64,000 bases of DNA from a virus (IMGVR_UViG_3300042879_005260:29514-93513); one strand, 5' to 3'; counted from the stretch's first letter, positions 6,872-63,564 are shown. The notes: a model not told the origin generated them from the letters alone. Numbers and translations are program-made.

Positions 6872-7264
6872 TTATCTTTCAAAGACATCACCTAAATCAT
6901 CAAATAGTTTTTTATATTCGTTTTTAATCCCTTCACTCAGTCCATCATCACTAAAAATTCTTAGAAAATGATTTAACAAAAATTCTAGATTAAAATTTTC
7001 AGCTTTTTCGTAGAAAAAATGACTATCAGTTTTATCTGGAATAATTTCACCTATAAAGTAATAAAAATTATTATTTCCATTTTCTTCATCTACAATATAA
7101 TCATAACCATTAAAAGATTTTTTACCTTTTAATTTTGTTTGAAATAATTTCATTAAAAATTCAGGATTTTTTGAAGCATCACTTGGTGGTATAATATTAT
7201 AATTTTCGATCCAATCAAAATCATCAAACTCTTCCCTTAATATTTTTCTTATAAGATTTTTCAT
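6872..7264 (-). CDS. array-associated family member (conserved N-terminal module only)
   Basis: N-terminus MKNLIRKILREEFDDFDW identical to family; start abuts distal end of mini-array A. Confidence 0.5.
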   Translation of the reverse strand: MKNLIRKILREEFDDFDWIENYNIIPPSDASKNPEFLMKLFQTKLKGKKSFNGYDYIVDEENGNNNFYYFIGEIIPDKTDSHFFYEKAENFNLEFLLNHFLRIFSDDGLSEGIKNEYKKLFDDLGDVFER

Positions 7265-7277: not shown

Positions 7278-7378
7278 CAGGTCAACACCTTTCGTTTATG
7301 GGTCATCTCTAGCGCCGTGAAATTAAATGATGATCTAGGTCTGCTGTCAATACCTTTCGTTTATGGGTCATCTCTAGC
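7278..7378 (-). CRISPR. mini-array A: 2 repeats (36 bp), 1 spacer (29 bp)
   Basis: repeats 7278-7313 (degenerate distal) and 7343-7378 (gene-proximal, gctagagatgacccataaacgaaaggtattgacagc in gene sense); spacer 7314-7342. Confidence 0.6.
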
Positions 7379-7707
7379 ATACGCATACATAAGTCTTTGA
7401 TTTCCTGATTGTTAAGACCAAATTTTTGATTTAATTTTCTCCAAATTTTATCATAATTAACTAATAAAATCGGATTTTTTTCATCCCTATCCGCATCATC
7501 CGCCATTAAATTTAGCCCACTTTTATCCTTATATAACATCCAACCTGGATTTTTTTCCGAAGGAATCATCTTTAAATTTGACATAATTTCATATAAAAAC
7601 TCTTCAGCGGGAGAAAATTGTTTGGTGTTACCAATCAATTCTTCTGCCCAACCAAAATCATCAAATTGTTCTTTTAGAATTTGTTTTACTATTTCACTAA
7701 TTTTCAT
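7309..7707 (-). CDS. array-associated family protein (FDDFGW...LEMTHKRKVLT); 3' end runs into mini-array A
   Basis: homologous over full length to 21508..21873, 39154..39597, 52997..53419; C-terminal LEMTHKRKVLT encoded by first repeat; ORF tail is read-through of spacer. Confidence 0.55.
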   Translation of the reverse strand: MKISEIVKQILKEQFDDFGWAEELIGNTKQFSPAEEFLYEIMSNLKMIPSEKNPGWMLYKDKSGLNLMADDADRDEKNPILLVNYDKIWRKLNQKFGLNNQEIKDLCMRMLEMTHKRKVLTADLDHHLISRR

Positions 7708-21873: not shown

Positions 21874-22115
21874 AACGGTGCAGAGCTGGAAATGACCCAT
21901 AAACGAAAGGTGTTTACAGCAAAAACTTGACGAACTTTTTTCGGAGTCGCTGGAAATGACCCATAAACGAAAGGTGTTTACAGCGCCAATTCATAATTCC
22001 TGGCAAATCCCTCTGCTGGAAATGACCCATAAACGAAAGGTGTTTACAGCTGTTACTGATGGTGGTATTGTGGCATACAGCTGGAAATGACCCATAAACG
22101 AAAGGTATTACTCCA
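21819..22115 (+). CRISPR. mini-array B: 5 repeats (36 bp), 4 spacers (30, 28, 30, 29 bp)
   Basis: repeats at 21819, 21885, 21949, 22015, 22080 (consensus gctggaaatgacccataaacgaaaggtgtttacagc; first and last degenerate at 3' end); spacers 21855-21884, 21921-21948, 21985-22014, 22051-22079. Confidence 0.7.
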
Positions 22116-29181: not shown

Positions 29182-29208
29182 TTTTATGACTCTTTGAAAT
29201 ATTTTAAT

Positions 29209-29279
29209 GTCCGATGGTGTAACGGCTAACATTTCTGAATTTGACTCAGAAGATTTCAGGTTCGAATCCTGATCGGACA
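29209..29279 (+). tRNA. tRNA-Gln(UUG)
   Basis: acceptor GTCCGAT/ATCGGAC, anticodon arm TCTGA-ATTTGAC-TCAGA, T-arm TCAGGTTCGAATCCTGA. Confidence 0.7.
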
Positions 29280-29288
29280 ACCATAACC

Positions 29289-29361
29289 GGAGCTTTCGTA
29301 TAGCTGGTGCGTACGTTGGACTGAAAATCCAAAGGACTAGGCTCGATTCCTAGAGGCTCCA
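29289..29361 (+). tRNA. tRNA-Phe(GAA)
   Basis: anticodon arm TTGGA-CTGAAAA-TCCAA; T-loop CTCGATT. Confidence 0.7.
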
Positions 29362-29367
29362 CTGAAC

Positions 29368-29441
29368 GGCGTCGTAGTCAAGTGGTTTAAGACAGGACTC
29401 TCATAAGGTCCCATTCGGGGGTTCGAATCCCTTCGACGCTA
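29368..29441 (+). tRNA. tRNA-Met/Ile2(CAU)
   Basis: anticodon arm GGACT-CTCATAA-GGTCC; T-arm GGGGGTTCGAATCCCTT. Confidence 0.65.
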
Positions 29442-29446
29442 CAAAT

Positions 29447-29519
29447 TCTCCTGAAGCATTGCTGGCGATGCACCTGACTTGTAATCAGGATACAATCGGT
29501 TCGATTCCGGTCGGGAGAT
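29447..29519 (+). tRNA. tRNA-Thr(UGU)
   Basis: anticodon arm CCTGA-CTTGTAA-TCAGG; T-loop TTCGATT. Confidence 0.65.
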
Positions 29520-29525
29520 CCAAAT

Positions 29526-29597
29526 AGTTCTGTAACTCAATGGAAGAGTACCAAGCTTACATCTTGGCTGTCGTTAGTTCGATTCTAACCAGAACTA
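29526..29597 (+). tRNA. tRNA-Val(UAC)
   Basis: acceptor AGTTCTG/CAGAACT; anticodon arm CCAAG-CTTACAT-CTTGG. Confidence 0.65.
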
Positions 29598-29604
29598 CTT
29601 AAAT

Positions 29605-29679
29605 GCCTCCATGGCGGAATTGGTAGACGCGTCACTCTTAGAAAGTGAATTTTTGTAGGTTCGAATCCTACTGGGGGCA
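29605..29679 (+). tRNA. tRNA-Leu(UAG), short variable arm
   Basis: Leu-type D-arm GCGGAATTGGTAGACGC; anticodon arm TCACT-CTTAGAA-AGTGA; discriminator A; only 75 nt. Confidence 0.55.
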
Positions 29680-29690
29680 CAAAAAAATAT

Positions 29691-29721
29691 TTGGTAAATT
29701 AAAAAATTTTATCTATATTTG
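29691..29721 (+). promoter_or_regulatory. Bacteroidetes-type promoter inside the tRNA cluster
   Basis: TTG at 29691, 20-nt gap, TATATTTG at 29714-29721, directly upstream of tRNA-Glu. Confidence 0.45.
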
Positions 29722-29733
29722 TACAACAATAAC

Positions 29734-29805
29734 GGTCGGTTCATCTAAGGGTTAGGATACAAGATTTTCATTCTTGTCATAGGGGTCCGAATCCCCTACC
29801 GACTA
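29734..29805 (+). tRNA. tRNA-Glu(UUC)
   Basis: anticodon arm CAAGA-TTTTCAT-TCTTG; T-arm AGGGGTCCGAATCCCCT. Confidence 0.65.
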
Positions 29806-29876
29806 CAAAAGGTTGATTGGGAATTCGGTGAACCGATGAGGTGAGTGAAACTAATCATAAAGTTCTTTGATATTAT

Positions 29877-29964
29877 GGCTGGGTGGCGAAATTTGGTTAT
29901 ACGCGAAAGACTTAAAATCTTTTGGACCGTGAGGTCCGTGCGGGTTCGAGTCCCGCCCCGGCTA
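29877..29964 (+). tRNA. tRNA-Leu(UAA), class II
   Basis: anticodon arm AAAGA-CTTAAAA-TCTTT; long variable arm TGGACCGTGAGGTCCGT; T-arm GCGGGTTCGAGTCCCGC. Confidence 0.7.
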
Positions 29965-29970
29965 CTAAAC

Positions 29971-30047
29971 ATGGTGATAGAGGAGTCAGGTTTATCTCGC
30001 TTGGTTTGGGACCAAGAATTACGTGGGTTCGAATCCCACTCACCATA
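29971..30047 (+). tRNA. tRNA-Pro(UGG)
   Basis: acceptor ATGGTGA/TCACCAT; anticodon arm CTTGG-TTTGGGA-CCAAG. Confidence 0.6.
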
Positions 30048-30055
30048 CTAAACAA

Positions 30056-30128
30056 GCCCTCGTGGCGCAACGGTGAGCGCAGGATGCTTATATCATCAAG
30101 GCTGTTGGTTCGAGTCCAACCGAGGGTA
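30056..30128 (+). tRNA. tRNA-Ile(UAU) candidate
   Basis: anticodon arm GGATG-CTTATAT-CATCA gives anticodon TAT; T-arm GTTGGTTCGAGTCCAAC. Confidence 0.5.
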
Positions 30129-30227
30129 CTAAAAAAAATATTAATCCTAGATTAAAATGAAAATAAAATATAAATATAAACAGTAAGGTTAGTCCACTAC
30201 GAATGGGCTAACCTTATAAAATGTTAA

Positions 30228-30299
30228 CCGCTCGTAGCAAACTGGTGTAGGCAATAGACTTTTAATCTATGGGGCTGGGTTCGACTCCCAGCGGGCGGA
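30228..30299 (+). tRNA. tRNA-Lys(UUU)
   Basis: anticodon arm ATAGA-CTTTTAA-TCTAT; T-arm CTGGGTTCGACTCCCAG. Confidence 0.65.
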
Positions 30300-30324
30300 C
30301 AAAAACCAAATTAAATAAGATTAC

Positions 30325-32443: not shown

Positions 32444-32520
32444 AGTCAGGTGGCTGAATTGGCGACAGAGGCACTCCATTAGACAATGGGTGGATGCAGG
32501 TTCGAGTCCTGTCCTGACTA
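32444..32520 (+). tRNA. tRNA-like element with aberrant anticodon region
   Basis: acceptor AGTCAGG/CCTGACT and T-arm GCAGGTTCGAGTCCTGT are canonical, but the central region forms an extended CCATT-AGAC-AATGG hairpin instead of a 7-nt anticodon loop. Confidence 0.4.
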
Positions 32521-32540
32521 CTAAAAAATTAAAAAATAAA

Positions 32541-33849: not shown

Positions 33850-34121
33850 GCACCTGTAGCTCAGTTGGATTAGAGCAACTGCCTCAAATCGGGGGTGTTA
33901 TGTCAGAAATGACATAATAGAATTCATCAAATTCGGGGAATCCTGTAAAATGGTAATCCCGAGCGAAGCCTGAAAAGGAACGTGTAGAGACTTGACGGTG
34001 AACACCTAAGTTAGAATCTAATAAGGTGATGGGAAAGTCCAGACCACAAACGTAAATGGTAGTGAAAACTATAGTGGTATGTCTAAGCAGTAGGTCCCAG
34101 GTTCGAATCCTGGCAGGTGTA
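33850..34121 (+). tRNA. tRNA-Arg(UCU) interrupted by a group I intron
   Basis: 5' exon GCACCTGTAGCTCAGTTGGATTAGAGCAACTGCCT (33850-33884); 3' exon TCTAAGCAGTAGGTCCCAGGTTCGAATCCTGGCAGGTGTA (34082-34121). Spliced product closely matches bacterial tRNA-Arg(UCU). Exon ends in U, intron ends in G. Confidence 0.6.
33885..34081 (+). ncRNA. group I intron (trnL-intron-like core), ~197 nt
   Basis: GGTAATCCCGAGCGAAGCC resembles the trnL intron GGGCAATCCTGAGCCAA element; GTGTAGAGACTTGACGG resembles the catalytic-core GCAGAGACTCAATGG; P7 pairing GACUU/AAGUC present. Confidence 0.55.
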
Positions 34122-34634: not shown

Positions 34635-35810
34635 TTTGTAAGACAAAATCGGGAAACCGAATCGTTCTTTGAAAAAATAGATTATCCGTTCAGGTGAAAG
34701 TAAGTTCTTCGGAACTATGATAACTTGATAAAGATATTGGGCCGTGTATAGTCCTTAAATAAACTACGAAAGTAGGATAAAGTGAAATCATCTGTGTTAG
34801 TGGTTTTGCGTCTTGGGAAACCGAGGTCGAGTACACAAGTGGGATATCATCTAACCTTTAGTACTGAGGGCAACGCTTTAGGGAAAATGGTTAGATGACT
34901 AAGCAATGTGGATTGTTTAGTTGAGGTGGGAACACCGATAAGAATAACCCATAGGAATCTTACAAAAAATGTGATTATCCAGTTACATTATTGTGGGTTC
35001 CAATACAAGAGAGGACTTAAAACCGAAAGGTAAGATGGAGAACGAGTGGTGTCGCTACCATCCCTATCAAAGATTTACCAAAATCTTGATATGAAGTAAT
35101 CTTAAAATATGGAAATGGGGACATTTCACTGAGTAGTTTGGTATTCTTTTCTTCAAAAGAGAACGGAGCCTACGACGGACCACTACTTGGACACATCCAC
35201 AACACAAAAACTTTATTATGAAAATTAAAGTCCATTTAATAAATAATTCTAAAGCAAAAGTGTTCGTCAGGTGTTGATGAAAGGTGATTACATAGTCATG
35301 AGTTGTTCATGGCACACTGAGACCGCAAGTTGATGTGTATTCTTGTGAAAAACCTCTAGTCCCGCAAGGATCAACTGGGGAGGCATCCTCGGAGAGAGTT
35401 GAGTAGAAAGAGAGTAGTTGGCACCTCTAGGAGTTGTATACCTAAAAAACCATCACTGAGAAATACTTCTCAAAAGGAAGTGGAAATAAAGGGAAACAAT
35501 AATCCTTTTAAAGGTTCTCACAAAAAACGTGTATTCTCAGCGTAAGTTTTAAAAAATATTTTAAAAGTAAAAAATCAAAACCACTGGTTAAACCCACTGG
35601 GGATTAGGCTCTAATGATGTCCACCCTTTGGTAAGTACTCACAATAGGCCGGCTTCTTTAATGGCTGATACGTGTATAAGTCCGAGCATAAAACACGAAC
35701 TCTACTTACTTTGTGAAATTACTGCCAATTGCAGACTACTATGTGGAATAAATAGATGACCTTCTGAACATAAAGATAAGTGCTCTTGGTTTGATTTTGT
35801 TATAATATAA
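34635..35810 (+). ncRNA. candidate large structured non-coding RNA (~1.2 kb, unknown family)
   Basis: downstream of promoter P2; no ORF above 60 aa on either strand; locally GC-richer than genome; many local hairpins; T-arm-like GGTTCGATTCC near 35855. Confidence 0.3.
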
Positions 35811-36039: not shown

Positions 36040-36110
36040 GCGGTATTTGTGTAGTGGTAAGACATGACATTGCCAATGTTAAGACGTAAGTTCGATTCTT
36101 GCATACCGCT
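36040..36110 (+). tRNA. tRNA-Gly(GCC)
   Basis: acceptor GCGGTAT/ATACCGC; anticodon arm TGACA-TTGCCAA-TGTTA; T-arm GTAAGTTCGATTCTTGC. Confidence 0.6.
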
Positions 36111-36156
36111 CTATTGATTTTTTTACATTGTAAACATATATTTATATTAAAAAAAT

Positions 36157-36708
36157 ATGAAAGATAAATTTGATGATTTTGGTGACGACTTTTTTGGTCG
36201 TTGGGAAGAGTTTAATAGATTAATGGTTAACTCACCTTTGATAAGAGATGAAATGGAAAAATTTCTTCGAATGCTAATGGATTCCAATGATTTAAATAAC
36301 GAAATTTCAAATATTAGAATCATACCTTTGAATGCTTATAAGCCAAATGATATTGATTCTTTTGATATTCCAGAAAACGAATTGGATGTTGAAAAAGGTG
36401 AAAATGAAAACGGTAAATGGGAAACTAAAAGTTGGACATCTCCAGATGGTTCTATGAGTTTTAAATCTTTTAGTATGTCATCAACACCCGAAGAATTTTT
36501 TTATAAAAATTTAATGTCAGATCTTTTTCAAACTGGTGACAATAGAAATTCAAAAAAATATACTACAGAAGATTTGAAAAATTTTAAAATAGAAAAACTC
36601 CAAAAATCTTTAAATGCCGCAGTTGAAGTTGAAGATTATGAAAAAGCTGCGGAACTTAAAAAAATGATTGAAAAAATAAAAGAAGAAAATTTTGATAATA
36701 AAAAATAA
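36157..36708 (+). CDS. acidic protein with UVR-like motif
   Basis: C-terminal LQKSLNAAVEVEDYEKAAELKKMIEKIK resembles UvrB/UvrC (UVR) domain. Confidence 0.4.
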   Translation: MKDKFDDFGDDFFGRWEEFNRLMVNSPLIRDEMEKFLRMLMDSNDLNNEISNIRIIPLNAYKPNDIDSFDIPENELDVEKGENENGKWETKSWTSPDGSMSFKSFSMSSTPEEFFYKNLMSDLFQTGDNRNSKKYTTEDLKNFKIEKLQKSLNAAVEVEDYEKAAELKKMIEKIKEENFDNKK

Positions 36709-36727
36709 TTTTATATATTTGTGATAT

Positions 36728-36890
36728 ATTTATAAAACAGAAAATGAAAAATTGGCAAAACATATCGATTAACCATAGTAACCGAATTAGTTCGGAATGT
36801 ATGAGGTGTGTCTTGTCCAGATTTAAGGTATAATTATTTTTATAAAAAATTGGATAACCCACCTCAAGAAATTTGATGGTGGGTTTTTTG
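36728..36890 (+). ncRNA. candidate small RNA (~160 nt) between promoter and terminator
   Basis: TTGATA..TATATTTG promoter at 36692-36721; terminator hairpin 36856-36885 plus T-run; only a 29-aa ORF inside. Confidence 0.3.
36855..36890 (+). terminator. rho-independent terminator
   Basis: aacccacc...ggtgggtt hairpin plus T6. Confidence 0.6.
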
Positions 36891-37006
36891 TTATTTGACA
36901 TATTGGAAATAAATTGGAGAGTTAAGCAGATGCATTGGAGCGTCGACCAGCTTTGAAACCTGGGTCTCGTTAAATTGAGTGGGGGTCGGGTCCTCAGCTC
37001 TCCGCT

Positions 37007-37081
37007 GTGTCTGTAGCTTAGATGGTTTAAAGCGTCTGATTGTGGTTCAGAAGACCGTGGGTTCGAATCCCACCAGACACC
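37007..37081 (+). tRNA. tRNA-His(GUG)
   Basis: acceptor GTGTCTG/CAGACAC; anticodon arm TCTGA-TTGTGGT-TCAGA; T-arm GTGGGTTCGAATCCCAC. Confidence 0.65.
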
Positions 37082-37087
37082 TTATAG

Positions 37088-37159
37088 GGGGGTGTAGCTC
37101 AGAGGCAGAGCAAACTACTGTTAATAGTTAGGCCGAGATTTCAAAATTCTCCATCCCCG
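37088..37159 (+). tRNA. tRNA-Asn(GUU)
   Basis: acceptor GGGGGTG/CATCCCC; anticodon arm AACTA-CTGTTAA-TAGTT; T-loop TTCAAAA. Confidence 0.55.
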
Positions 37160-37165
37160 CAAAAT

Positions 37166-37238
37166 AGTACCGTGTCTGAACGGTTTAGGAACTATCCTGA
37201 TAAGATAGGAAAAGTGGGTTCGACTCCCACCGGTACTA
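37166..37238 (+). tRNA. tRNA-Ile(GAU)
   Basis: acceptor AGTACCG/CGGTACT; anticodon arm CTATC-CTGATAA-GATAG; T-arm GTGGGTTCGACTCCCAC. Confidence 0.65.
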
Positions 37239-37244
37239 CAACAT

Positions 37245-37326
37245 GCATCTGCTCATTGGTGTGACCAACCGGCTCCAACCCGGTAATGCGTAAGCGTGGT
37301 TAAGAGTTCGAATCTCTTCGGATGCG
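37245..37326 (+). tRNA. tRNA with anticodon CCA (Trp?) and long extra arm, atypical
   Basis: acceptor GCATCTG/CGGATGC; anticodon arm ACCGG-CTCCAAC-CCGGT; T-arm AAGAGTTCGAATCTCTT; 82 nt. Confidence 0.4.
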
Positions 37327-37331
37327 CAAAA

Positions 37332-37418
37332 GGAAGATAGGTAAATATTGGTTTGTTACAACATCCTGCTAAGATGTCCCAGGTAAAACTGGTGAGGGTT
37401 CAATTCCCTTGTCTTCCG
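37332..37418 (+). tRNA. tRNA-Ser(GCU), class II
   Basis: anticodon arm ACATC-CTGCTAA-GATGT; long variable arm CCCAGGTAAAACTGGT; CCA encoded. Confidence 0.65.
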
Positions 37419-37424
37419 CCAAAT

Positions 37425-37499
37425 AGTCCCATAGCTCAACGGATTTAGAGTACAGTGCTACGAACACTGCGGTTGAAGGTTCAAATCCTTCTGGGACTA
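37425..37499 (+). tRNA. tRNA-Arg(ACG)
   Basis: acceptor AGTCCCA/TGGGACT; anticodon arm CAGTG-CTACGAA-CACTG; T-arm GAAGGTTCAAATCCTTC. Confidence 0.65.
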
Positions 37500-37540
37500 C
37501 AAACATTTACTAAAAAAAGAAAATTTCATATTATTCAAAT

Positions 37541-38041
37541 ATGATTAAGAAAAATATTAAAAAACATTTTCTTCTTGAAAATAATGTTAATTCTTTAACT
37601 ATAAGTGGTCCTGGTCTTACTCTTGGTCAAAGTCTTAATATTGTTATGAATAATGGGATTGTGTTAACACAACCAATACGTTATTGTTTATCAATACAAC
37701 GTAACCAAGGGGTCAAAAGATTTTATGTTAACCTTTTAAACCCTATATCTTATGTATATAATAACAATTTTAATCGAGAATGGTTACCACTGCATTTAAA
37801 AATTACAGATTCTATTAATTGTGACTCACCCCAAGAATGGTTTCAGGATTGGTTCTTCGATGATCAACAACAAGGTACTTTTTTAACCTTAGAAAAAATT
37901 AACCCTACAGGTGAAATTACTGGTTGTTATAATTTTCACAATTCTTTTTTACAAGAACTCAACAATGAAGTTGTTTTTGATAGATTGGTAAATCCTATAG
38001 AAATTAAGATTAAATACGCTAATATGAATGTTTTGTTTTAA
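37541..38041 (+). CDS. hypothetical protein
   Basis: ORF track 166 aa. Confidence 0.4.
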   Translation: MIKKNIKKHFLLENNVNSLTISGPGLTLGQSLNIVMNNGIVLTQPIRYCLSIQRNQGVKRFYVNLLNPISYVYNNNFNREWLPLHLKITDSINCDSPQEWFQDWFFDDQQQGTFLTLEKINPTGEITGCYNFHNSFLQELNNEVVFDRLVNPIEIKIKYANMNVLF

Positions 38042-39105
38042 ATTCTATCATAAACATCTTCTTCAAAGTAAGGTAGAACTTCTTTTCTACTAGGATATTC
38101 ATCAAACCTTGGAGACCAAAGTTGCCCATTTTCCGTTAACATATTTTCAAATAAACTTTTAAATAGATAAGAGTCAAAATCATGACAATCATCACAATAT
38201 TCTTCAGGATTTTCAACTTTACGGTTATTTAAACAATGTTCAAAACAACCATAAAAATAATCATTAATCACCCCTTCAAATAAGTCAGTAATATCAAATT
38301 TTAAAAAATATTTGGTTCTACCTTTTTCGTTAGTTGTGGTACCCTCAATAGGTTGACCAAATACATCTGTTATGGCTTCTTTTATAGATTTATAAATATT
38401 GTCAGTTGTGGCAACATTATAAGCACTATCATAAGCCCAACCAAACTCTCTTTTTAATTCTAAAAAAGTATCGTCATCATCTATTAAACGACCTAAAGAT
38501 TCTGGGTTTTCTGTTAACCAATTAAAATATTCGTTATCCAATAGACGTTCTTTTCCTCCGGACATTAAATCTTCAACATAATAGATTTCTCTTTTCTCTG
38601 GTAAATTACCAAAAATATCTAATTGTTTTGGGTTGTAATTATCAGGGATAACATATTCTTTTTTAATATGTTTTAAAATATATTCATAAAGTTTATTATT
38701 ACCTACAACACCTTCTAACCAAACATCATTAAACCAACTGCCGTAGGTATCGTTATAAGGTTCCCACCAATTGTTTTCATCACAAAATATTTTTTCAACC
38801 AACCAAGAATTAACTATACCGTATTGGGTTAAATTATCATCATTTTTGAAAAAACCAGTAAAGTCACAAAAACCATCTACCGTCATCATAATTCTATCAC
38901 CTTCTAAATTTATATCACTAAATTCGGAGGCTAGTATTGGCATGATTCTTTTTTTAAGGTTTACACTTTTTGATTTGCCGTAATTTGCACGATACCAAAG
39001 TATGCCAGCCGGAATTTCAACTGTTTCAACATTATCAATTAAATCTCCCACCCAATCAAAATCATCAAATTCTTCTCTCAATATTTTTCTTATAAGGTTT
39101 TTCAT
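38038..39105 (-). CDS. array-associated family member (conserved N-terminal module fused to an unrelated 330-aa body)
   Basis: MKNLIRKILREEFDDFDWVG then unrelated sequence; start abuts distal repeat of mini-array C. Confidence 0.5.
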   Translation of the reverse strand: MKNLIRKILREEFDDFDWVGDLIDNVETVEIPAGILWYRANYGKSKSVNLKKRIMPILASEFSDINLEGDRIMMTVDGFCDFTGFFKNDDNLTQYGIVNSWLVEKIFCDENNWWEPYNDTYGSWFNDVWLEGVVGNNKLYEYILKHIKKEYVIPDNYNPKQLDIFGNLPEKREIYYVEDLMSGGKERLLDNEYFNWLTENPESLGRLIDDDDTFLELKREFGWAYDSAYNVATTDNIYKSIKEAITDVFGQPIEGTTTNEKGRTKYFLKFDITDLFEGVINDYFYGCFEHCLNNRKVENPEEYCDDCHDFDSYLFKSLFENMLTENGQLWSPRFDEYPSRKEVLPYFEEDVYDRI

Positions 39106-39118
39106 ATTTTATAAATAT

Positions 39119-39286
39119 CAGGTTAACATTTTTCGTTTATGGGTCATCTCCAGCTATGCCATTGGTAGCAGAGTGGTCTCTAACGCTGTCAATACCTTTC
39201 GTTTATGGGTCATCTCCAGCCAAAGTTCCCACGTTTTAAAAAGACATGCAGCTGTCAATACCTTTCGTTTATGGGTCATCTCCAGC
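39119..39286 (-). CRISPR. mini-array C: 3 repeats (36 bp), 2 spacers (30 bp each)
   Basis: repeats 39119-39154 (degenerate distal), 39185-39220, 39251-39286 (gene-proximal); spacers 39155-39184 and 39221-39250. Confidence 0.65.
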
Positions 39287-39597
39287 ATACGCACGCATAA
39301 GTCTTTGGTTTCCTGATAGTTAAGACCAAATTTTTGACTTAATTTTGACCAAATTTCATCATAATCAACCCATAAACAAGGGTTTTTTTCATTTCTATCC
39401 ACATTATCCGCCATTAAATTTAGCCCACTTTTATCCTTATATAACATCCAACCTGGATGTTTTTCCGAAGGAACCGCCTTTAAATTGGACATAATTTCAT
39501 AAAGAAATTCTTCAGCGGGGGAAAATTCTTTAATTTCCCCCACCCAATCAAAATCATCAAACTCTTCCCTTAATATTTTTCTTATAAGATTTTTCAT
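39154..39597 (-). CDS. array-associated family protein; 3' end runs through mini-array C
   Basis: MKNLIRKILREEFDDFDWVGEIKEFSPAEEF...CVRMLEMTHKRKVLT; ORF tail is in-frame read-through of repeat-spacer units (each 66 bp). Confidence 0.55.
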   Translation of the reverse strand: MKNLIRKILREEFDDFDWVGEIKEFSPAEEFLYEIMSNLKAVPSEKHPGWMLYKDKSGLNLMADNVDRNEKNPCLWVDYDEIWSKLSQKFGLNYQETKDLCVRMLEMTHKRKVLTAACLFKTWELWLEMTHKRKVLTALETTLLPMA

Positions 39598-39610
39598 ATT
39601 TTATAAATAT

Positions 39611-39844
39611 CAGGTCAACACCTTTCGTTTATGGGTCATCTCCAGCTCAAATCAACTTCAATCAAAGTCCGATTCAGCTGTCAATACCTTTCGTTTATGG
39701 GTCATTTCCAGCACCCTCGCCCGGATTGTTGGAGGTGAAAAGGCTGTCAATACCTTTCGTTTATGGGTCATTTCCAGCCAGCGAATGTGAAGCGTGACAC
39801 CTCCGGTTGCTGTCAATACCTTTCGTTTATGGGTCATTTCCAGC
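39611..39844 (-). CRISPR. mini-array D: 4 repeats (36 bp), 3 spacers (30 bp each)
   Basis: repeats 39611-39646 (degenerate distal), 39677-39712, 39743-39778, 39809-39844; spacers 39647-39676, 39713-39742, 39779-39808; spacers about 50% GC in a roughly 30% GC genome. Confidence 0.7.
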
Positions 39845-41346
39845 ATACGCACGCATAAGTCTTTGATTTCTTGTTCATTAAGACGAAATTCTTGATTTAA
39901 TTTTAACCAAATTTCATCATAATCAACCCATAAATAAGGATTTTCTTTATCTCTATCCGCATCATCCGCCATTAAAGTAACCCCGCTTTTATCCTTATAT
40001 AACATTAAACCTGGATTATTTTCCGAAGGAACCACCTTTAAATTGGACATGATTTCATACAAAAATTCTTCAGCGGGTGAAAATTGTTTGGTGTTACCAA
40101 CTAATTCTTCTGCCCAACCAAAATCATCGGATTCAAATAAATTATTTATAATATCTTGAACTTCTTTTTGGTAGATACCAATTTTTTTAAACTTAATTCT
40201 ACCCGATTCAAGATGTTTTAAAAAATCAATAACATAATAACCAATTTTATGTTTTATACCATTAACTGAGTCTTCCCAGGAAATTATAAAATCATCATAC
40301 CCATCTTCCACTCTTAACTCTTCTATTTTATATTCTTCATTTGGTTTGTTGGTATAATAAAAAATAGAACCTATATAATCTTTTGGGTTTTGAAACTTAT
40401 TTTCTTTATTTTCATATAAACTACTTATTATATCATAAGCGTTTGGTAAATCACCTAAATTTTTTAAAACAAAAAAACCATTATTTAAATATTCAATAAG
40501 GATACTTATTGTCATTGTAGAATATTCTGTCATTGGTTCACCATCTTCATTTAGATCATCAGGGTCTTCCCATTCAATGTCAATTAAGTCAACAGAACTA
40601 TCTTGATCCCAAATACGATATACCACAAATTCTTCAGGGCTATAAAACTCAAATCCAATTAGATTTTCATCTTTTAAAAAATCAAATTTACCTTCCAATA
40701 ATAAAGAATTATTTTTTTCTTTATTTTCTTGAATTTTATTTTTGTTAAATAAATTTTTTAAACCATGGGTACCAACAGCCATAATAATACCACTCAAAAG
40801 TTCTTGAACATTATTAATAGTAAAACCTTTTTCTGTGGTTAAATTTTTAATAAAATCTAAAACCGGAACTGATAAAAATGTAAAACTTAAAATATCTAAT
40901 AAATCGTTAATCATGTAACCAAATTTTTTACCAAATATTTTAAATAAATTGATTGTTTTGGAAATAAAATTTAAAACTGGTGATATTTCTTTTTCAAGGC
41001 CTCTTTCTTTAATCTTATCAACAACCTCATCAATTTCTTCTTTTGGTTTTGATAGGATAATATAAATCGCAACAATTGTTAAAAGTGCAACATCATAATC
41101 CGTAACATTTAAATTTTTATTTTCTAACAAAGATTTAACTGGGCCAATAAAAGCGGAAATACCAACTCCATAAGTCATTATAAAGTTGAAATTACTTTTT
41201 AGCTGTGAAATGATTTCTTTTAACACTGGATTAGTTTTTACATCGAAACCTTTATTAATTATATTTTCATTTAAAGAATTAAGTTTACCTTTAAGATAAA
41301 CCTCTTCTAGTAGTAAATTTAAAGAGATATTAGAAATGTTACCCAT
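39658..41346 (-). CDS. large protein (562 aa) whose C-terminal ~130 aa is the array-associated family domain; 3' end runs through mini-array D
   Basis: ...FESDDFGWAEELVGNTKQFSPAEEFLYEIMSNLK...CVRMLEMTHKRKVLT; N-terminal ~430 aa unrelated. Confidence 0.55.
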   Translation of the reverse strand: MGNISNISLNLLLEEVYLKGKLNSLNENIINKGFDVKTNPVLKEIISQLKSNFNFIMTYGVGISAFIGPVKSLLENKNLNVTDYDVALLTIVAIYIILSKPKEEIDEVVDKIKERGLEKEISPVLNFISKTINLFKIFGKKFGYMINDLLDILSFTFLSVPVLDFIKNLTTEKGFTINNVQELLSGIIMAVGTHGLKNLFNKNKIQENKEKNNSLLLEGKFDFLKDENLIGFEFYSPEEFVVYRIWDQDSSVDLIDIEWEDPDDLNEDGEPMTEYSTMTISILIEYLNNGFFVLKNLGDLPNAYDIISSLYENKENKFQNPKDYIGSIFYYTNKPNEEYKIEELRVEDGYDDFIISWEDSVNGIKHKIGYYVIDFLKHLESGRIKFKKIGIYQKEVQDIINNLFESDDFGWAEELVGNTKQFSPAEEFLYEIMSNLKVVPSENNPGLMLYKDKSGVTLMADDADRDKENPYLWVDYDEIWLKLNQEFRLNEQEIKDLCVRMLEMTHKRKVLTATGGVTLHIRWLEMTHKRKVLTAFSPPTIRARVLEMTHKRKVLTAESDFD

Positions 41347-41378: not shown

Positions 41379-42092
41379 GTGATATTTATTTATAAATCAA
41401 ATTTAATTATGAAAAATATAATTACACTTAATGAAAATCAACTTGAAAAATTGGTTAAAAAAATTATCCAAGAAAATGATGAAAAAGAAAGCAATCGTTA
41501 TATGTTTTTTTCCAATCTAGAACAAATGCATAGGCAAACAGCAATGTTGTTGGAAATGGATGAAGAAACAATAACAAATATATTGGAAAACGGTCATGAT
41601 TGGGCACAAGACCATATCGCAGAAGCAAAAAATAATATGGACCAAGTTTTCGATTTTTTAATGAACGAAACTAAAGGTGGTGACCACGAGTATGATGACT
41701 ATGATGATGACTATGATGATGACTATGATGATAATGAGATGATGGTTATGGAACCGCAACTAGAATCTTATTTAAGAGAAAATTCTGATAGAATTATAGA
41801 TTTTGATGAATTTGGTTTTACTGAATTACTTCCTATAAATGAAGCTAAAGGTAAGGGTGCTTGTGCTAATAGAGGTTTAAGTAAACCATGGTTAACACCT
41901 GGTGGTCCTAAAAAACGTTCTGTTTGTGTTAAAAACGCAAGTGGTAATGTGGTTAAAGTAAACTTTGGTGACCCAAATATGAGAATAAAAAAGTCTAACC
42001 CAAAAAGACGTAAATCTTTTAGAGCTCGTCATAAATGTAGTAACCCAGGTCCTAAATGGAAGGCAAAATATTGGAGTTGCCGCGCGTGGTGA
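41379..42092 (+). CDS. protein with acidic DDYDDDYDDDYDD repeat and basic Cys-containing C-terminal tail
   Basis: codon-level tandem repeat at 41694-41740; tail ...HKCSNPGPKWKAKYWSCRAW. Confidence 0.4.
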   Translation: MIFIYKSNLIMKNIITLNENQLEKLVKKIIQENDEKESNRYMFFSNLEQMHRQTAMLLEMDEETITNILENGHDWAQDHIAEAKNNMDQVFDFLMNETKGGDHEYDDYDDDYDDDYDDNEMMVMEPQLESYLRENSDRIIDFDEFGFTELLPINEAKGKGACANRGLSKPWLTPGGPKKRSVCVKNASGNVVKVNFGDPNMRIKKSNPKRRKSFRARHKCSNPGPKWKAKYWSCRAW

Positions 42093-42978
42093 TCATCAAC
42101 TCAATACCTTTATAAGATTTTAACTTACCTTTAATAACTTTAGTTATATTTGACCTATCTAAATTATTTTCTTTACAAAATTTAGATAGGTCATTTTTTA
42201 ATATTTCCATAATTAAATTTTTGTTTCTATCGTAAAAATTTACCACTTCAAGATTTAAATTATCATATTCTTGACATTTTGTTAAAATTTTATTGTCAGT
42301 TTGTTGAGTATCTAAAAAACAATAGTAACCTTTATTTCTTTTAATATTTTTTATATGACCCCTTAATGTATTAGTAAAAAAATGTATTTTTAAATTATTT
42401 TTTTCACAAAAATCTTCTAAACTTTTAATTCTTAAAATATTGTTTTGGGCATCAACTAAAACCCAATTCTTTGCTTTATTTTTATTTTGTTCTACTAATC
42501 TAGATGTGTTTTTTTGGCTTATTTTATTTTTATGTTCCTGACTAAATTTTTTACCCTTATTAGACATAATGAATTTTTTAACTTTTTCTTGATATTCCAC
42601 ACTATTTAAAGTTTTTTGCCATTTTTCCGATTTTTTTAAACCGTCAGAAATTATTTTAGATAAACATTCAGACACCATTCGCATCCTGTTTTTTTGACCA
42701 CCACCTAAAATATTGTACCCATTGGGTGTTATAGAGCTTAATTGTTTTATCCAGTAAATTTCTTTTTCATCTAATTCTTCTAAAGTTGAAGCCTTATCTA
42801 TTATTTCCCATTCAAAATTTTCTATACCATATTTTTTTATGGCATTTAAAAACGGCCTATTACTTTTATCAAGTTTTGATTCTTTTAAATGACCTTTAAT
42901 TCTTTTATCTAAATTTCTAATTGTTTGACCAATATAGATTTTGTTATTTATTTTATTTTTAACTCTGTAAATTATCAT
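42052..42978 (-). CDS. GIY-YIG homing endonuclease
   Basis: MIIYRVKNKINNKIYIGQT...R..KGH GIY-YIG motif; 308 aa with extended C-terminal region. Confidence 0.7.
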   Translation of the reverse strand: MIIYRVKNKINNKIYIGQTIRNLDKRIKGHLKESKLDKSNRPFLNAIKKYGIENFEWEIIDKASTLEELDEKEIYWIKQLSSITPNGYNILGGGQKNRMRMVSECLSKIISDGLKKSEKWQKTLNSVEYQEKVKKFIMSNKGKKFSQEHKNKISQKNTSRLVEQNKNKAKNWVLVDAQNNILRIKSLEDFCEKNNLKIHFFTNTLRGHIKNIKRNKGYYCFLDTQQTDNKILTKCQEYDNLNLEVVNFYDRNKNLIMEILKNDLSKFCKENNLDRSNITKVIKGKLKSYKGIELMITTRGNSNILPSI

Positions 42979-43055: not shown

Positions 43056-43517
43056 ATGAAACATATAATTAAAGAAATATTATTACAAGAAGCAAAGAAA
43101 AAAGATGACCGTTGTACCAGGATTGCTAAACGTAAATACGATGTTTGGCCTTCTGCTTACGCATCAGGTGCAGTAGTTAAATGTCGCCAAGGTAAAATTT
43201 GGAAAAATGAAAATTTAGAATATGATGATTTTTTATTGTTTGAAAACGATGAATATGAAAATATTTTAATTGAGGAATCTAAAAAAGATTTTAGTAAAGA
43301 AAAAGAAGAAGGTTTACATGGTTGGTTTGCAAGACAAGGCGGTAGTGGTAAAGGAAAAGGCTGGGTAGATTGTAACACCTGTAGAACCGATAAAAAAACA
43401 GGTAGAAAAAAGTGTAAAACTTGTGGCCGTCAAGAAGGTGAAAAAAGAGCTAAATACCCAAGATGCAGACCAACACCATCACAATGTAAAGGATATAAAA
43501 GACCGGACGAAAGATAA
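43056..43517 (+). CDS. basic Cys-rich protein
   Basis: C-terminal CNTCRTDKKTGRKKCKTCGRQ...CRPTPSQCKGYKRP. Confidence 0.4.
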   Translation: MKHIIKEILLQEAKKKDDRCTRIAKRKYDVWPSAYASGAVVKCRQGKIWKNENLEYDDFLLFENDEYENILIEESKKDFSKEKEEGLHGWFARQGGSGKGKGWVDCNTCRTDKKTGRKKCKTCGRQEGEKRAKYPRCRPTPSQCKGYKRPDER

Positions 43518-43518
43518 A

Positions 43519-45789
43519 ATGCCTTATAGAGTAGATCCTAAAAATAAAAAATGTGTGCAAGTTAAAAAATCGGGCAAATGGCAACGTAAAGGTTGTACAG
43601 ATGGCCCTGTTAAAAAATATCTTGCGGCATTATACGCAAATACCGAAGATATTACTGAATCAACCGAAAATCAATTTGATTGGGTAGAAAATATCATTGG
43701 TAAGATTTCTTTTGGATCTTTTAAAAAACATCTTAAAGAGGGTGATAAAGTTATTTTAAGTGGTGAAATAACTGATGATATGGGTGAAACTTGGTGCTCT
43801 GTAGAAGAAGAACCTTTTTCTGTTGAAGAAATTACAGCCAATAATTCTATATATTTAAAATGGGTCAGAGATGTGAGTGAAAGACCTGCTGATTGGGAAT
43901 CTATAACAAATGATTTTGATGTTATTTATTTTACGAAAGATACCGAAGAATATGATAATAACTTAATAGTTACCATTTTTAAAGACATAAATTTAAACGA
44001 AAATACTGAAAATTCTGAATGGTGGGAAGATGTTATGGAAAATAGATTAAAATTTGGTAACATAAGAAAACATTTGCAAGAAGGTGATATCATAAATTTA
44101 ACCGGTGATTTAAAGGATAGTGACGGCAATATTGAATTGACTTTAAATGAGGAACCTTTTATTGTGGTACGTAATGTAAATGAAGGTAAAATGGTTATAT
44201 TAAGATTTTTAAACTTTTCAAAACCAGATGATTTACCTAAAGGTTGGGATGTTGTTGCAAATCTTGGTAACGGTGATGTTTATTTTAGAAATTTCACCAA
44301 AAAATATGATGATGAACTTATTGTTACATTTAACGATGATAATAGATTAAATGAAAATTTTGAAGATTCTGAATGGTACATGGATATTATAAATGACCCT
44401 GGTAGTGTTTTAAACTTTAAAGGGAAAGAGATTATGATAGATGTTAGAGGGTTATCTTTTGAAGAAAAATTAAGGTTATTAAAAATTATAACACCATATG
44501 TTAATGAAAGTAATATTGAAAGAAACCAAAATAGTTCAGAACAAGATGATTGGGCACCTGAATGTTTATTAAGAAGTACTAGGGTTATGAGTATAAGTTT
44601 ACATTGTGGTACTGAAGAAACTGATTACATACCCGAATCAGGGAACTTTTGTTGTCTTACATATAGTTACGAACATGAAGAAAATACACCAAAAGAACTT
44701 ATTTTACCACTAAATGCTAGAGATATTTTAAATTCATATCATCTAAATGAATCTGATTTTGATTGGATTAATGATCTTTTAGAAAAAAAACCACCTTTTC
44801 CACCACCAAATACTCCGGTAACAATGGATAATTGGGATCAATATAAAACGGTTAAAGTCATTAGGGGTAAAGATTGGGATTGGGGTGATCAAGATAATAA
44901 TGGTTTTGGTAAAATAGTTGGTGAACCTTTTAATGAAACCGAGGGCAATGAATGGTGGATAGAAGTTAAATGGGATAATGGTCACAAAAATAATTATAGA
45001 GTTGGTGAGGTGTATTATGACCTTTATTTTTACACACCAGAAATTTGGATAAAAAATCCTTATGAAAAAAAATTAAATGAATCAAATCGGCATAAAGGTT
45101 TTGTTAATTTAATAAAAGAAGGAAAATATGATAAAATAACTGGTCTTGCTGTTAAAGATATCATGCGTATTTTAAATACCATCACGGAAAAAGATAAAAA
45201 AAAATCTAAATACAGTTTCTCACTACCAAATGATTTAAAACTTAAAAATCAAAATGAATATTACCAAGAAGGCCTGCAATTTGGTATTAATTTGGAAATT
45301 TATTACGTTGATAATTTAAATTCTGGGGAAGATTTCGAAGTTGTTTCGGTTATTACAAAAGATAGATATGTTAGGGATTACGAACAAGAAAATAATATAT
45401 TAATAAAAATCAAAATAAAAAAAGGCACAGATAAAACAATCTTTAATAGAATATACTATAAATTAAATGAAGATATTAGGCATGAAATAGAACATTTTAA
45501 ACAATCAGGGCCTAATTTAATTCCAGGTAGACCAAAGCCAAAAGATTCTAAGTATTTTAAAACAACATTTGGCCATCATAAAAATTTGGCAGAAATACCT
45601 GCTTTAGTTCACGGTTTTTATCGTCGAGCAAAAAAAGAAAAAAAACCTTTAGATGTTGTCATGATAGAAGATTTGGATAAAGAAGTAACAAGAGGTGATA
45701 TAAATTTAAAACAAAAAGAAAAATTATTACAGATTTGGATTGATTACGCGAAACAAAATATCCCAACTGCCATTTACAAAAACTTTTAA
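43519..45789 (+). CDS. large hypothetical protein with C-terminal HExxH module
   Basis: start moved to MPYRVDPKNKK (track ORF overlaps upstream gene); C-terminal RHEIEHFKQ...KKPLDVVMIEDLD homologous to 62195..63178 product. Confidence 0.5.
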   Translation: MPYRVDPKNKKCVQVKKSGKWQRKGCTDGPVKKYLAALYANTEDITESTENQFDWVENIIGKISFGSFKKHLKEGDKVILSGEITDDMGETWCSVEEEPFSVEEITANNSIYLKWVRDVSERPADWESITNDFDVIYFTKDTEEYDNNLIVTIFKDINLNENTENSEWWEDVMENRLKFGNIRKHLQEGDIINLTGDLKDSDGNIELTLNEEPFIVVRNVNEGKMVILRFLNFSKPDDLPKGWDVVANLGNGDVYFRNFTKKYDDELIVTFNDDNRLNENFEDSEWYMDIINDPGSVLNFKGKEIMIDVRGLSFEEKLRLLKIITPYVNESNIERNQNSSEQDDWAPECLLRSTRVMSISLHCGTEETDYIPESGNFCCLTYSYEHEENTPKELILPLNARDILNSYHLNESDFDWINDLLEKKPPFPPPNTPVTMDNWDQYKTVKVIRGKDWDWGDQDNNGFGKIVGEPFNETEGNEWWIEVKWDNGHKNNYRVGEVYYDLYFYTPEIWIKNPYEKKLNESNRHKGFVNLIKEGKYDKITGLAVKDIMRILNTITEKDKKKSKYSFSLPNDLKLKNQNEYYQEGLQFGINLEIYYVDNLNSGEDFEVVSVITKDRYVRDYEQENNILIKIKIKKGTDKTIFNRIYYKLNEDIRHEIEHFKQSGPNLIPGRPKPKDSKYFKTTFGHHKNLAEIPALVHGFYRRAKKEKKPLDVVMIEDLDKEVTRGDINLKQKEKLLQIWIDYAKQNIPTAIYKNF

Positions 45790-52996: not shown

Positions 52997-53419
52997 GTGA
53001 AAAACCTTATAAAAAAAATATTAAGAGAAGAGTTTGATGATTTTGATTGGGTGGGGGAAATTAAAGAATTTTCCCCCGCTGAAGAATTTCTTTATGAAAT
53101 TATGTCCAATTTAAAGGCGGTTCCTTCGGAAAAAAATCCAGGTTGGATGTTATATAAGGATAAAAGTGGGCTAAATTTAATGGCGGATAATGTGGATAGA
53201 AATGAAAAAAACCCTTGTTTATGGGTTGATTATGATGAAATTTGGTCAAAATTAAGTCAAAAATTTGGTCTTAACTATCAGGAAACCAAAGACTTATGCG
53301 TGCGTATGCTGGAGATGACCCATAAACGAAAGGTATTGACATCTGATGGCCTGCCTGCACGGTTTCTTGTTTTGCTGGAGATGACCCATAAACGAAAGGT
53401 ATTAACCTCATATTTATAA
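52997..53419 (+). CDS. array-associated family protein (apparent GTG start); 3' end runs through mini-array E
   Basis: VKNLIKKILREEFDDFDWVGEIKEFSPAEEF...CVRMLEMTHKRKVLT; ATG at 52994 is followed by TGA, GTG in frame. Confidence 0.5.
   Translation: MKNLIKKILREEFDDFDWVGEIKEFSPAEEFLYEIMSNLKAVPSEKNPGWMLYKDKSGLNLMADNVDRNEKNPCLWVDYDEIWSKLSQKFGLNYQETKDLCVRMLEMTHKRKVLTSDGLPARFLVLLEMTHKRKVLTSYL
53308..53409 (+). CRISPR. mini-array E: 2 repeats (36 bp), 1 spacer (30 bp)
   Basis: repeats 53308-53343 and 53374-53409 (degenerate distal); spacer 53344-53373 tgatggcctgcctgcacggtttcttgtttt. Confidence 0.6.
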
Positions 53420-63384: not shown

Positions 63385-63398
63385 AATTTATATAATCG

Positions 63399-63470: not shown

Positions 63471-63477
63471 ATTATTG

Positions 63478-63550: not shown

Positions 63551-63564
63551 ATTTAATATTTTTG

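Follow-up and report, generated by a model that had tools for sequence, protein, structure and literature searches.

A tandem arrangement of genes and short repeat arrays is found at positions 38038-41346 of a 64,000-nucleotide (nt) stretch of viral DNA (IMGVR_UViG_3300042879_005260:29514-93513), here called the window. On its minus strand, three genes alternate with two miniature arrays of the CRISPR kind (short palindromic repeats that are clustered and regularly interspaced). The window has a GC content of 29.4% and contains 79 open reading frames (ORFs) of at least 80 amino acids, none of them longer than 828 amino acids. The locus was first described in a sequence-only reading of the window; the coordinates given there, the three ORFs (562, 147 and 355 amino acids) and the two arrays, termed C and D, all hold.

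The first gene (41346..39658, minus strand) encodes 562 amino acids. As called in the ORF list, its translation runs through the first three repeats of array D and stops within the third spacer. No Pfam, PHROG or PADLOC family matched it, and its final 115 or so amino acids (about 39811-40140) are a copy of the domain that makes up the leader genes, that is, the short genes standing directly upstream of the arrays. Array D (39611-39844, minus strand) consists of four repeats of 36 nt (39809-39844, 39743-39778, 39677-39712 and the terminal, degenerate 39611-39646) and three spacers of 30 nt (39779-39808, 39713-39742 and 39647-39676, with a GC content of 57%, 57% and 33%, respectively).

The second gene, leader gene C (39597..39154, minus strand), encodes 147 amino acids, made up of a 115-residue domain and a read-through tail, and belongs to a family with no fewer than 154 clusters of metagenomic proteins. 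It ends inside array C (39119-39286, minus strand), which has three repeats of 36 nt (39251-39286, 39185-39220 and the terminal, degenerate 39119-39154) and two spacers of 30 nt (39221-39250 and 39155-39184). The third gene (39105..38038, minus strand, 355 amino acids) is without an array and has only an N-terminal module, MKNLIRKILREEFDDFDW, in common with the leader genes, as the earlier reading had observed.

Two duplications link the parts of the locus. One of 281 nt (39809-40089 versus 39251-39531, 89% identity) holds the copies of the leader domain ahead of arrays D and C. The other, of 112 nt (39044-39155 versus 39536-39647, 93% identity), spans the terminal repeat, the junction with the next gene and the N-terminal module. 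The repeat reads GCTGGA(A/G)ATGACCCATAAACGAAAGGTATTGACAGC. The gene-proximal repeat had been said to encode a conserved C-terminus, and its reading frame (G, then CTG GAG ATG ACC CAT AAA CGA AAG GTA TTG ACA, then GC) does give LEMTHKRKVLT(A). The distal repeat had been called degenerate and merging into a junction; in both arrays it decays to ...GACCTG, is followed by ctgatatttataaaatATG, and overlaps the stop codon and ATATTTATAAAATATG.

At each junction stands the motif GATATTTATA (39602-39611 between array D and gene C, 39110-39119 between array C and the next gene, minus strand). Nine copies occur in the window, against 0.83 expected (7269, 10126, 14213, 16320, 21494, 23159, 39110, 39602 and 52983). 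Every copy lies on the same strand as a gene and precedes its start codon by 4 nt; the motif is probably a phage-specific promoter or gene-start signal. A sigma-70 family protein is also encoded in the window. Since GATATTTATA precedes many unrelated gene starts, each tandem downstream gene may have its own start signal, and the single transcription unit proposed in the earlier reading is a possibility only. The junction ctgatatttataaaatATG is not peculiar to array loci. No terminator-like site was found between the tandem genes on the gene (minus) strand.

The description of a locus in which genes and mini-arrays alternate was correct and understated the number of arrays, since the window contains five rather than two. 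Altogether the 36-nt repeat occurs 16 times, and the 11 spacers, 28-30 nt long, are all different; the exact spacing of 36 and 30 nt given for arrays C and D applies to those two, and in the three further arrays the spacers range from 28 to 30 nt. Leader gene A and its array occupy 7278-7707 on the minus strand: the gene (7707..7309) encodes 132 amino acids, and array A (7278-7378) has two repeats (7343-7378 and 7278-7313) around a single 29-nt spacer, followed by a gene that starts with the N-terminal module (7264..6872). Leader gene B and its array occupy 21508-22115 on the plus strand, with a gene of 121 amino acids (21508-21873) and an array of five repeats and four spacers of 28-30 nt (21819-22115). 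Leader gene E and its array occupy 52997-53409 on the plus strand; the gene has a GTG start and encodes 140 amino acids, and the two repeats (53308-53343 and 53374-53409) enclose a single 30-nt spacer. Directly downstream lies a divergent paralogue without an array (53423-53806, plus strand, 127 amino acids), which has H-K-R-x-V at the homologous place, written in other synonymous codons, and then continues ...DAVGALYNLHLSQF.

In each of the five arrays, the first repeat supplies, in frame, the last twelve codons of a multi-copy phage gene of about 115 amino acids and so encodes its C-terminus (LEMTHKRKVLTA). The proposal that members of a phage gene family have CRISPR-type arrays joined to their 3' ends is thus borne out across the window. 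With up to three mismatches, the 36-mer has 11 matches in the window against 0 expected, and the 17-nt repeat core has 16 against 0.5 expected; counts so far above expectation exclude chance. The 11 spacers have a mean GC content of 44%, compared with 29.4% for the window.

The N-terminal module MKNLIRKILREEFDDFDW and looser variants of it head several otherwise unrelated genes in the window (7264..6872, 39105..38038, 53423-53806, 16507-16791 and 43056-43517) and repeat inside 43423-45789, an ORF of 788 amino acids in which DFDW-like segments recur. The module also heads genes downstream of arrays in the distant phages L195 and L197. A gene-array cassette is usually followed by a gene with this same module, which would offer a simple route for tandem spread by recombination.

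Scans for the repeat core retrieved about 45 related phage contigs, with a GC content of 28-33%. In these relatives, arrays of the same repeat stand at homologous places, mostly with different spacers. All are short, with 1-4 spacers. Together, the window and its relatives provide 72 unique spacers with a modal length of 30 nt, 55 of them being exactly 30 nt long. No match to any of them exists in the window or in 446 kb of DNA from related phages, so that spacers arising by simple duplication of the phage's own genome, which would have spoken against a CRISPR-like locus, are not what is found. Their GC content (38.4%) exceeds that of random 30-mers from the phages (30.2%, p = 1e-11).

Two pairs of closely related loci illustrate how the arrays differ. 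Array D equals the array of contig L010 plus an exact gene-proximal insertion of 132 nt (2 x 66), with the trailer-most spacer in common and flanks that are 93% identical. Likewise, the array of contig L022 equals array E plus two gene-proximal units, again with a common trailer spacer and with flanks that are 97.6% identical. Gain at the gene-proximal end and loss by recombination between repeats are both compatible with these 132-nt differences. The differing 66-nt units lie exactly at the gene-repeat junction and it is the distal repeat that is degenerate, in agreement with the suggestion that the gene acts as the leader of its array. Terminal repeats come in 36 variants, all of which diverge over the last 5-13 nt and decay from the 3' end.

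The protein tails that extend beyond the first repeat can be judged from the spacers. An in-frame stop codon is present in 30 of the 55 thirty-nucleotide spacers, more than in either of the other two frames, and spacer lengths of 28, 29 and 31 nt put the sequence that follows out of frame. There is thus no coding selection on the spacers, and the variable tails are incidental read-through.

These loci combine constant repeats and unique spacers, spacers that do not derive from the carrier, unit-wise differences that are polarised along the array, and a degenerate terminal repeat. One missing element is the non-coding, AT-rich leader of ordinary CRISPR arrays; a conserved ORF with a confidently predicted fold lies upstream of every array in its place. 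The loci are genuine CRISPR-type mini-arrays with a protein-coding leader.

The repeat of the window, here called F1, is one of two types. Among homologues of the F1 leader protein, 117 of 119 continue past the motif LE[MAVIT]THKRKVLT into an unrelated tail and only 2 end at it, which makes arrays the rule in this family; in 24 of 120 homologues the motif occurs two or three times in the called protein. Because a codon analysis of loci retrieved with a repeat pattern is subject to ascertainment bias, it was set aside and replaced by a locus retrieved by its protein alone (L171, 59% amino acid identity). There, the DNA is 72% identical upstream of the repeat and identical at 36 of 36 positions within it. 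A homologue without an array, in contig L188, resembles the paralogue at 53423-53806: it keeps H-K-R in other synonymous codons and has a different C-terminus.

More distant homologues, at 26-36% identity, were found on other AT-rich viral contigs by a protein-profile search of IMG/VR. Aligned with F1 by HHalign (probability 98.4%, E = 6e-15), they are related up to a point that falls exactly at the start of the repeat. Genes of this second type, F2, also end in mini-arrays, with 36-nt repeats and spacers of 29-32 nt. The terminal repeat of these arrays is truncated and runs on into the start codon (ATG) of the next gene, which begins MKQLIRKILKEE. An example of the F2 repeat, GTTGGGTGAGGTCTATAATTTAAGGGGAATCACAAC in L195, encodes W-LGEVYNLRGITT. 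The two repeats align in register at 21 of 36 positions. Protein searches put the F1 type at 154 clusters or more and the F2 type at 622 or more, in both cases with a conserved motif followed by random tails, so that the gene-array fusion is present in more than 770 protein clusters. In GenBank phages, tblastn found no homologue of either leader protein. One F2 cassette lies on contig L221 (region 1-1398; NCBI JBFDMU010002652.1, 246.5 kb), less than 10 kb from Acb3 and Tad6, which are members of anti-CBASS and anti-Thoeris families; gene-array cassettes may therefore be located in counter-defence regions.

Since the fusion persists in homologues with identity down to 26% and with another repeat, it is old. 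The C-terminal peptide changes along with the repeat, which indicates that evolution has tracked the nucleotides of the repeat and not the peptide. On this comparative evidence, the gene-array cassette is a long-standing unit in which the repeat dictates the peptide, and the locus at 38038-41346 is one instance of a much wider and older architecture rather than a peculiarity of its site.

The repeat resembles those of CRISPR type VI-B. This type has a 36-nt repeat with GUUG...CAAC ends and a U-rich loop, 30-nt spacers, and a 66-nt CRISPR RNA (crRNA) made of spacer plus repeat (bioRxiv 10.1101/092577). Comparison with VI-B repeats had been among the checks proposed for the locus and was the one to give a signal. 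The phage arrays have the 36-nt repeat, the spacers of about 30 nt and the complementary ends, which are GCUG...CAGC in the window and GUUG...CAAC or GUUG...CAGC in relatives (GYUG...CARC overall). The predicted minimum-energy fold of the repeat has the VI-B layout (as described in PMC8209922), at -7.9 kcal/mol and z = -3.0; the second stem is not conserved in F2.

A search of bacterial genomes with a pattern consisting of the phage repeat ends plus GGY retrieved 120 arrays, mostly from Bacteroidota and including Segatella buccae and Flavobacterium columnare. Of eight large ORFs adjoining arrays retrieved in this way, six encode Cas13b (NF038190). A covariance model was built from 85 distinct true VI-B repeats and run unfiltered on both strands of the window. 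Its ten best matches are all phage repeats, at full length and on the gene-sense strand, with 14-23 bits; eight of them score 20-23 bits (E about 0.01-0.05), and the F2 repeat of L195 scores 24 bits. The closest host repeats are those of Aquimarina (L090) for F1 and Chryseobacterium (L091 and L057) for F2, both borderline above a null model with a shuffled middle.

The orientation of the repeat is ambiguous from its sequence alone, as a position-weight matrix slightly favours the antisense strand, with its T-rich loop. The sense orientation is preferred because of the covariance model, the polarity of the arrays, the terminators downstream of them and the F2 repeat type. Intrinsic terminators follow the arrays in the gene-sense direction in L171 and in L003/L009. 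In VI-B arrays, transcription runs from the leader into the array, and spacers are acquired in trans (PMC8092290). A type II assignment was dropped because the window contains no anti-repeat resembling a trans-activating CRISPR RNA. In Rfam, no CRISPR direct-repeat or other family was found on the arrays, either at the gathering threshold or at E <= 10.

The model judged to lie just on the probable side of even is that these are phage-borne, VI-B-like mini-arrays with a coding leader, which are fed by the adaptation enzymes of the host and load or titrate a Cas13b-like effector of the host. In this model, transcription in the sense of the gene would begin at its start signal and continue through the array, which would thus form the 3' portion of the gene's mRNA. 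Next, Cas1-Cas2 present in the infected cell, most likely supplied by the host in trans, would insert new units at the gene-repeat junction. A precedent exists in Flavobacterium, where the Cas1 of a II-C system feeds a VI-B array that lacks cas1, in trans and with many non-phage spacers (PMC8092290). A Cas13b-like host effector would then bind the repeat hairpins and cut just 3' of each repeat, which is the position known for Cas13b (PMC8209922). Such processing would release RNAs of about 66 nt, each a spacer plus a repeat, together with an mRNA truncated after the first repeat, and the effector pool of the infected cell would become filled with RNAs supplied by the phage.

Two functions are conceivable for RNAs loaded in this manner, and both may operate. 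Guide-directed targeting of rival elements or host transcripts has a fair claim that still falls short of even, and it is somewhat likelier than pure titration of the effector, which is possible on a more tentative footing. The turnover of spacers at consensus frequency, seen between phages that are almost identical, is an argument for their importance. As a whole, the evidence suggests that these phages reprogram or jam a Cas13b-like, RNA-guided immune system of their hosts.

A number of results weigh against this model. The first group concerns the repeat. The training repeats of the covariance model were themselves retrieved by a pattern based on the ends of the phage repeat, which makes the model's scores partly circular. 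The loop of the F1 repeat is A18 A19 C20 (AAC), compared with UUU in at least 90% of true VI-B repeats; the U-rich loop is marked by T18-T20 and G21, each conserved in at least 90% of the 85 repeats. On the 24 columns that the search pattern left unconstrained, the phage repeat reaches 2.6 bits, compared with 20.5 for the median true repeat and 6.5 for the 5th percentile; random 36-mers from the window average -22.7 bits on these columns, and 0.5% of them reach 2.6. The handles of the repeat are VI-B-like (8.7 versus 11.4 bits) and its loop is not (-6.1 versus +10.2). F2 repeats do have UUU, shifted by one position. Given the mismatched loop, the low score on unconstrained columns and the circular training, the repeat is filed as VI-B-like and not as a proven member of the type.

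The second group concerns targets and partners. No protospacer was found for the 72 spacers in GenBank phages or in the 446 kb of related phage fragments, and five spacers searched as 20-mers against IMG/VR returned matches to themselves only. In the opposite direction, 879 spacers from host VI-B arrays were compared with the phage DNA, and the sole match, an AT-rich 20-mer of low complexity, was dismissed. The statement that the 64 kb contain no cas genes stands: PADLOC and Pfam found no Cas1, Cas2, Cas12 or Cas13 among the 79 window ORFs. Weak "Cas9" matches in the window coincide with matches to HNH homing endonucleases. Large ORFs beside the arrays of about 40 further contigs contain no Cas family either, and no cas gene adjoins an array in about 450 kb of DNA from related phages; on IMG/VR contigs of this phage group, Cas13b was not found. 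The sole relative of Cas13b found in IMG/VR (L170, 6449-7530, IMGVR_UViG_3300033419_000075) belongs to an unrelated VI-B locus of canonical form, in which some 17 repeats are 35 nt long (GTTGTAAATGCCCTTGTTTGAAGGGTAAAAACAAC). Its contig, listed as "viral", measures 21 kb, has a GC content of 35% and may be a host fragment or a genuine VI-B system borne by a mobile genetic element.

An exact two-copy pattern of the F1 repeat core had 0 matches in the GTDB species representatives (185,579 genomes), and no non-phage contig with the core was found in JGI metagenomes, where only phage-like contigs were returned; L036, from the same scan, is a chance match to an ordinary 68-nt tandem repeat. It is possible that a matching repeat is carried by particular strains or by unsampled hosts. 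Finally, activation of Cas13b normally leads to dormancy, which would be harmful to a lytic phage as well.

A different explanation, rather unlikely in our judgement, is that the cassette is an RNA anti-CRISPR decoy. Its repeats would mimic host VI-B repeats and the hairpin at the end of the transcript would soak up Cas13b, the spacers being a by-product of adaptation whose sequence is irrelevant. The absence of a detectable target for any spacer would follow directly, and the aberrant loop could suit binding without function. The dosage of at least five copies per 64 kb fits as well, as do the predicted free folding of the first repeat in arrays C and D, without the inhibitory leader-repeat hairpin used by hosts, and the F2 copy within 10 kb of the counter-defence genes Acb3 and Tad6. 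Viral repeat mimics are known anti-CRISPRs (PMC10651486), and a functional extraneous crRNA provided in trans sequesters Cas13b and weakens phage defence (PMC13187072). What fits the decoy less well is the turnover of spacers between flanks that are 97.6% identical, at assembly-consensus frequency, which is easier to understand with selection on spacers. At least one spacer is kept in 117 of 119 family members, and the RNA anti-CRISPRs described so far are solitary repeat units, not arrays.

Alternatively, leader gene and array could form a self-contained mobile phage module, in which the C-terminal codons of a protein double as a CRISPR repeat and with which the phages run a heritable, adaptive RNA-guided system of their own. 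This is considered unlikely. The protein of such a module might bind the RNA or DNA of its own repeat, recruit adaptation enzymes, or act as partner of an unrecognised phage effector.

It is improbable that the system is autonomous in a wider sense, with an effector, and perhaps adaptation genes, of a possibly undescribed kind encoded elsewhere in phage genomes of 120-320 kb. There would be room for them, as the contig measures at least 122 kb, of which the window represents 64 kb, and large phages are known to carry CRISPR systems without some of their parts (PMC11656645). A machinery of the phage's own would also account for a repeat that is confined to phage-like contigs with a GC content of 28-33%, is absent from the 185,579 species-representative genomes, and departs from host VI-B repeats at nearly invariant positions. 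Against it stand the lack of any Cas family in the ORFs of the window or in large ORFs next to the arrays of about 40 other contigs, and of any Cas13b relative in this phage group in IMG/VR. Moreover, the arrays are scattered beside unrelated genes, and their sole conserved partner is the leader gene.

In neo-CRISPR formation, Cas1-Cas2 integrates ectopically at a repeat-like site, and a sequence that is not an array grows by repeat duplication and spacer insertion. Such events are sporadic and unselected. If the repeat-like coding sequence were an off-target site of host Cas1-Cas2 of this sort, the arrays would be neutral scars without function. The phage loci resemble this situation in that an array has grown from a sequence that is not a canonical array; the repeat belongs to a real protein with a conserved fold, the paralogue without an array keeps H-K-R-x-V, the arrays have only 1-4 spacers, and half of the spacers hold in-frame stops with no coding selection. 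They differ from it in that hundreds of phage gene clusters (more than 770, with two repeat types and protein identities as low as 26%) conserve the fusion, which evolves in step with the encoded peptide. The nucleotides of the repeat have stayed fixed during the divergence of the remaining gene sequence, and the C-terminal peptide follows the repeat, the opposite of what accidental resemblance predicts. Functionless scars are accordingly thought very improbable.

Least credible of all, and scarcely worth retaining, is a device that acts at the level of protein and has nothing to do with CRISPR, either one that varies the C-terminal tails or a repeat protein whose linkers vary: the 66-nt period does correspond to 22 codons, and the motif does recur in frame, two or three times in 24 of 120 F1 homologues, but the in-frame stops in 30 of 55 spacers, the frame-breaking lengths of 28, 29 and 31 nt, the conservation of nucleotides including synonymous sites, and the decay of terminal repeats from the 3' end, as in CRISPR arrays, all contradict it.

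The preferred model, of mini-arrays that use host adaptation enzymes and a host effector, can be compared with several known systems. Mini-CRISPR arrays borne by viruses have been described in the Saccharolobus portogloboviruses SPV1 and SPV2, and those of prophages and viruses were surveyed by Faure et al. (PMC6858448, PMC11656645). As in the present phages, these arrays are viral, short (1-4 spacers), free of cas genes and presumed to use host machinery, and their spacers differ between related viruses. Unlike the present arrays, they have repeats identical to those of the host and spacers directed mostly at related viruses, neither of which was found here. Five arrays per 64 kb, a coding leader, a coding first repeat and two repeat types also set the present phages apart.

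The type VI-B arrays of Bacteroidota, served in trans by II-C Cas1-Cas2 (Flavobacterium columnare; PMC8092290; bioRxiv 10.1101/092577), share with the phage arrays the 36-nt repeat, the 30-nt spacers, ends of the GUUG...CAAC type, leader-proximal gain, orientation from leader to array and the absence of adjacent cas1 and cas2. They also take up non-phage (host) spacers (PMC8092290). The phage arrays, in contrast, have no cas13b nearby, an A-rich loop (CAUAAACGAAA) instead of the conserved U-rich one, marginal covariance and position-weight scores, and a coding leader where VI-B arrays have an AT-rich, non-coding one.

Another comparison is offered by RNA anti-CRISPRs (Racrs; PMC10651486) and extraneous crRNA (PMC13187072), since repeat mimics expressed by a phage from a strong upstream unit could titrate an effector in the same way, and an extraneous crRNA has the same layout of a first repeat joined to upstream coding sequence. 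Racrs, however, are solitary, spacer-less units located downstream of a promoter and often beside acr genes, whereas the present arrays have spacers that turn over and are fused to an ORF. The survey of repeat units on mobile elements found them for every CRISPR type except type VI (PMC10651486), and plasmid-borne CRISPR systems are likewise of every type except VI (PMC11656645). In the searchable literature, the repeat sequence occurs in no paper, and no description of the gene-array arrangement was found.

The carrier is an uncultured, T4-like phage of large size, whose host is probably a freshwater member of the Bacteroidota. The window contains 21 tRNA genes (with clusters at 29208-30300, 36040-37500 and 63398-63729), a GOLLD RNA and a group I intron, and related contigs have T4-type portal, prohead protease, baseplate and family-B polymerase genes. 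The relatives come from freshwater-lake metagenomes of several sampling projects, with contigs of up to 108-318 kb, and no DNA-level relative of the locus was found among GenBank phages. Phage proteins with PKD domains and the C-terminal sorting domains of type IX secretion (Por_Secre_tail, CHU_C) are encoded at 2378-3622 (minus strand) and in another ORF; these sorting domains make a Bacteroidota host likely.

Several other features of the window deserve mention. The GOLLD RNA is full length and lies between tRNA clusters (35129-35543, plus strand; Rfam RF02032, 306 bits, E = 9e-87), and the group I catalytic intron is at 33875-34062 (plus strand; RF00028, 61 bits). A tRNA with the anticodon UUA (32444-32521, plus strand) is a predicted ochre (UAA) suppressor, which could shift the real ends of some ORFs, including the read-through tails at the arrays. 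Near the tandem locus, a perfect 12-nt tandem repeat ATGATGACTATG (3.4 copies, 41692-41744) encodes an acidic stretch rich in D and Y within an ORF at 41379-42092 (plus strand); a GIY-YIG homing endonuclease ORF follows at 42052-42978 (minus strand), and an HNH endonuclease is encoded elsewhere in the window.

The divergent neighbour of leader gene A is an SMC-like ATPase (7622-10108, plus strand) that matches the Lamassu LmuB model (PADLOC E = 1e-17). A further ORF of the window matches MzaA (E = 5e-43); both are defence-type genes on a phage. The scan of the 79 ORFs also revealed the RNA-repair-type domains PF20274 cREC_REC and PF10307 HAD_SAK_1, as well as IF3, RNase HII, DHFR, two NUDIX proteins and two Mom-family proteins. 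RNA repair and a large set of tRNAs would suit a phage exposed to damage by HEPN RNases, for example through collateral cleavage by Cas13b.

What the cassettes mean for phage biology can be stated at several levels. On phages, repeats of the VI-B-like family abound: they are found in more than 770 protein clusters and in several arrays per genome, and the arrays show signs that spacer turnover is ongoing within phage genomes. The cassettes are also a natural case of dual coding, in which the C-terminus of a protein is at the same time a CRISPR repeat and each gain of a spacer rewrites the protein's tail. The family provides a defined set of sequences with which hosts, targets and processed RNAs can be sought in lake metagenomes and metatranscriptomes. 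If the arrays do not load host Cas13b, some other effector awaits discovery. If they do, lytic T4-like phages would program or disarm an RNA-targeting, dormancy-inducing form of immunity, which would be a new route of counter-defence or of conflict between phages.

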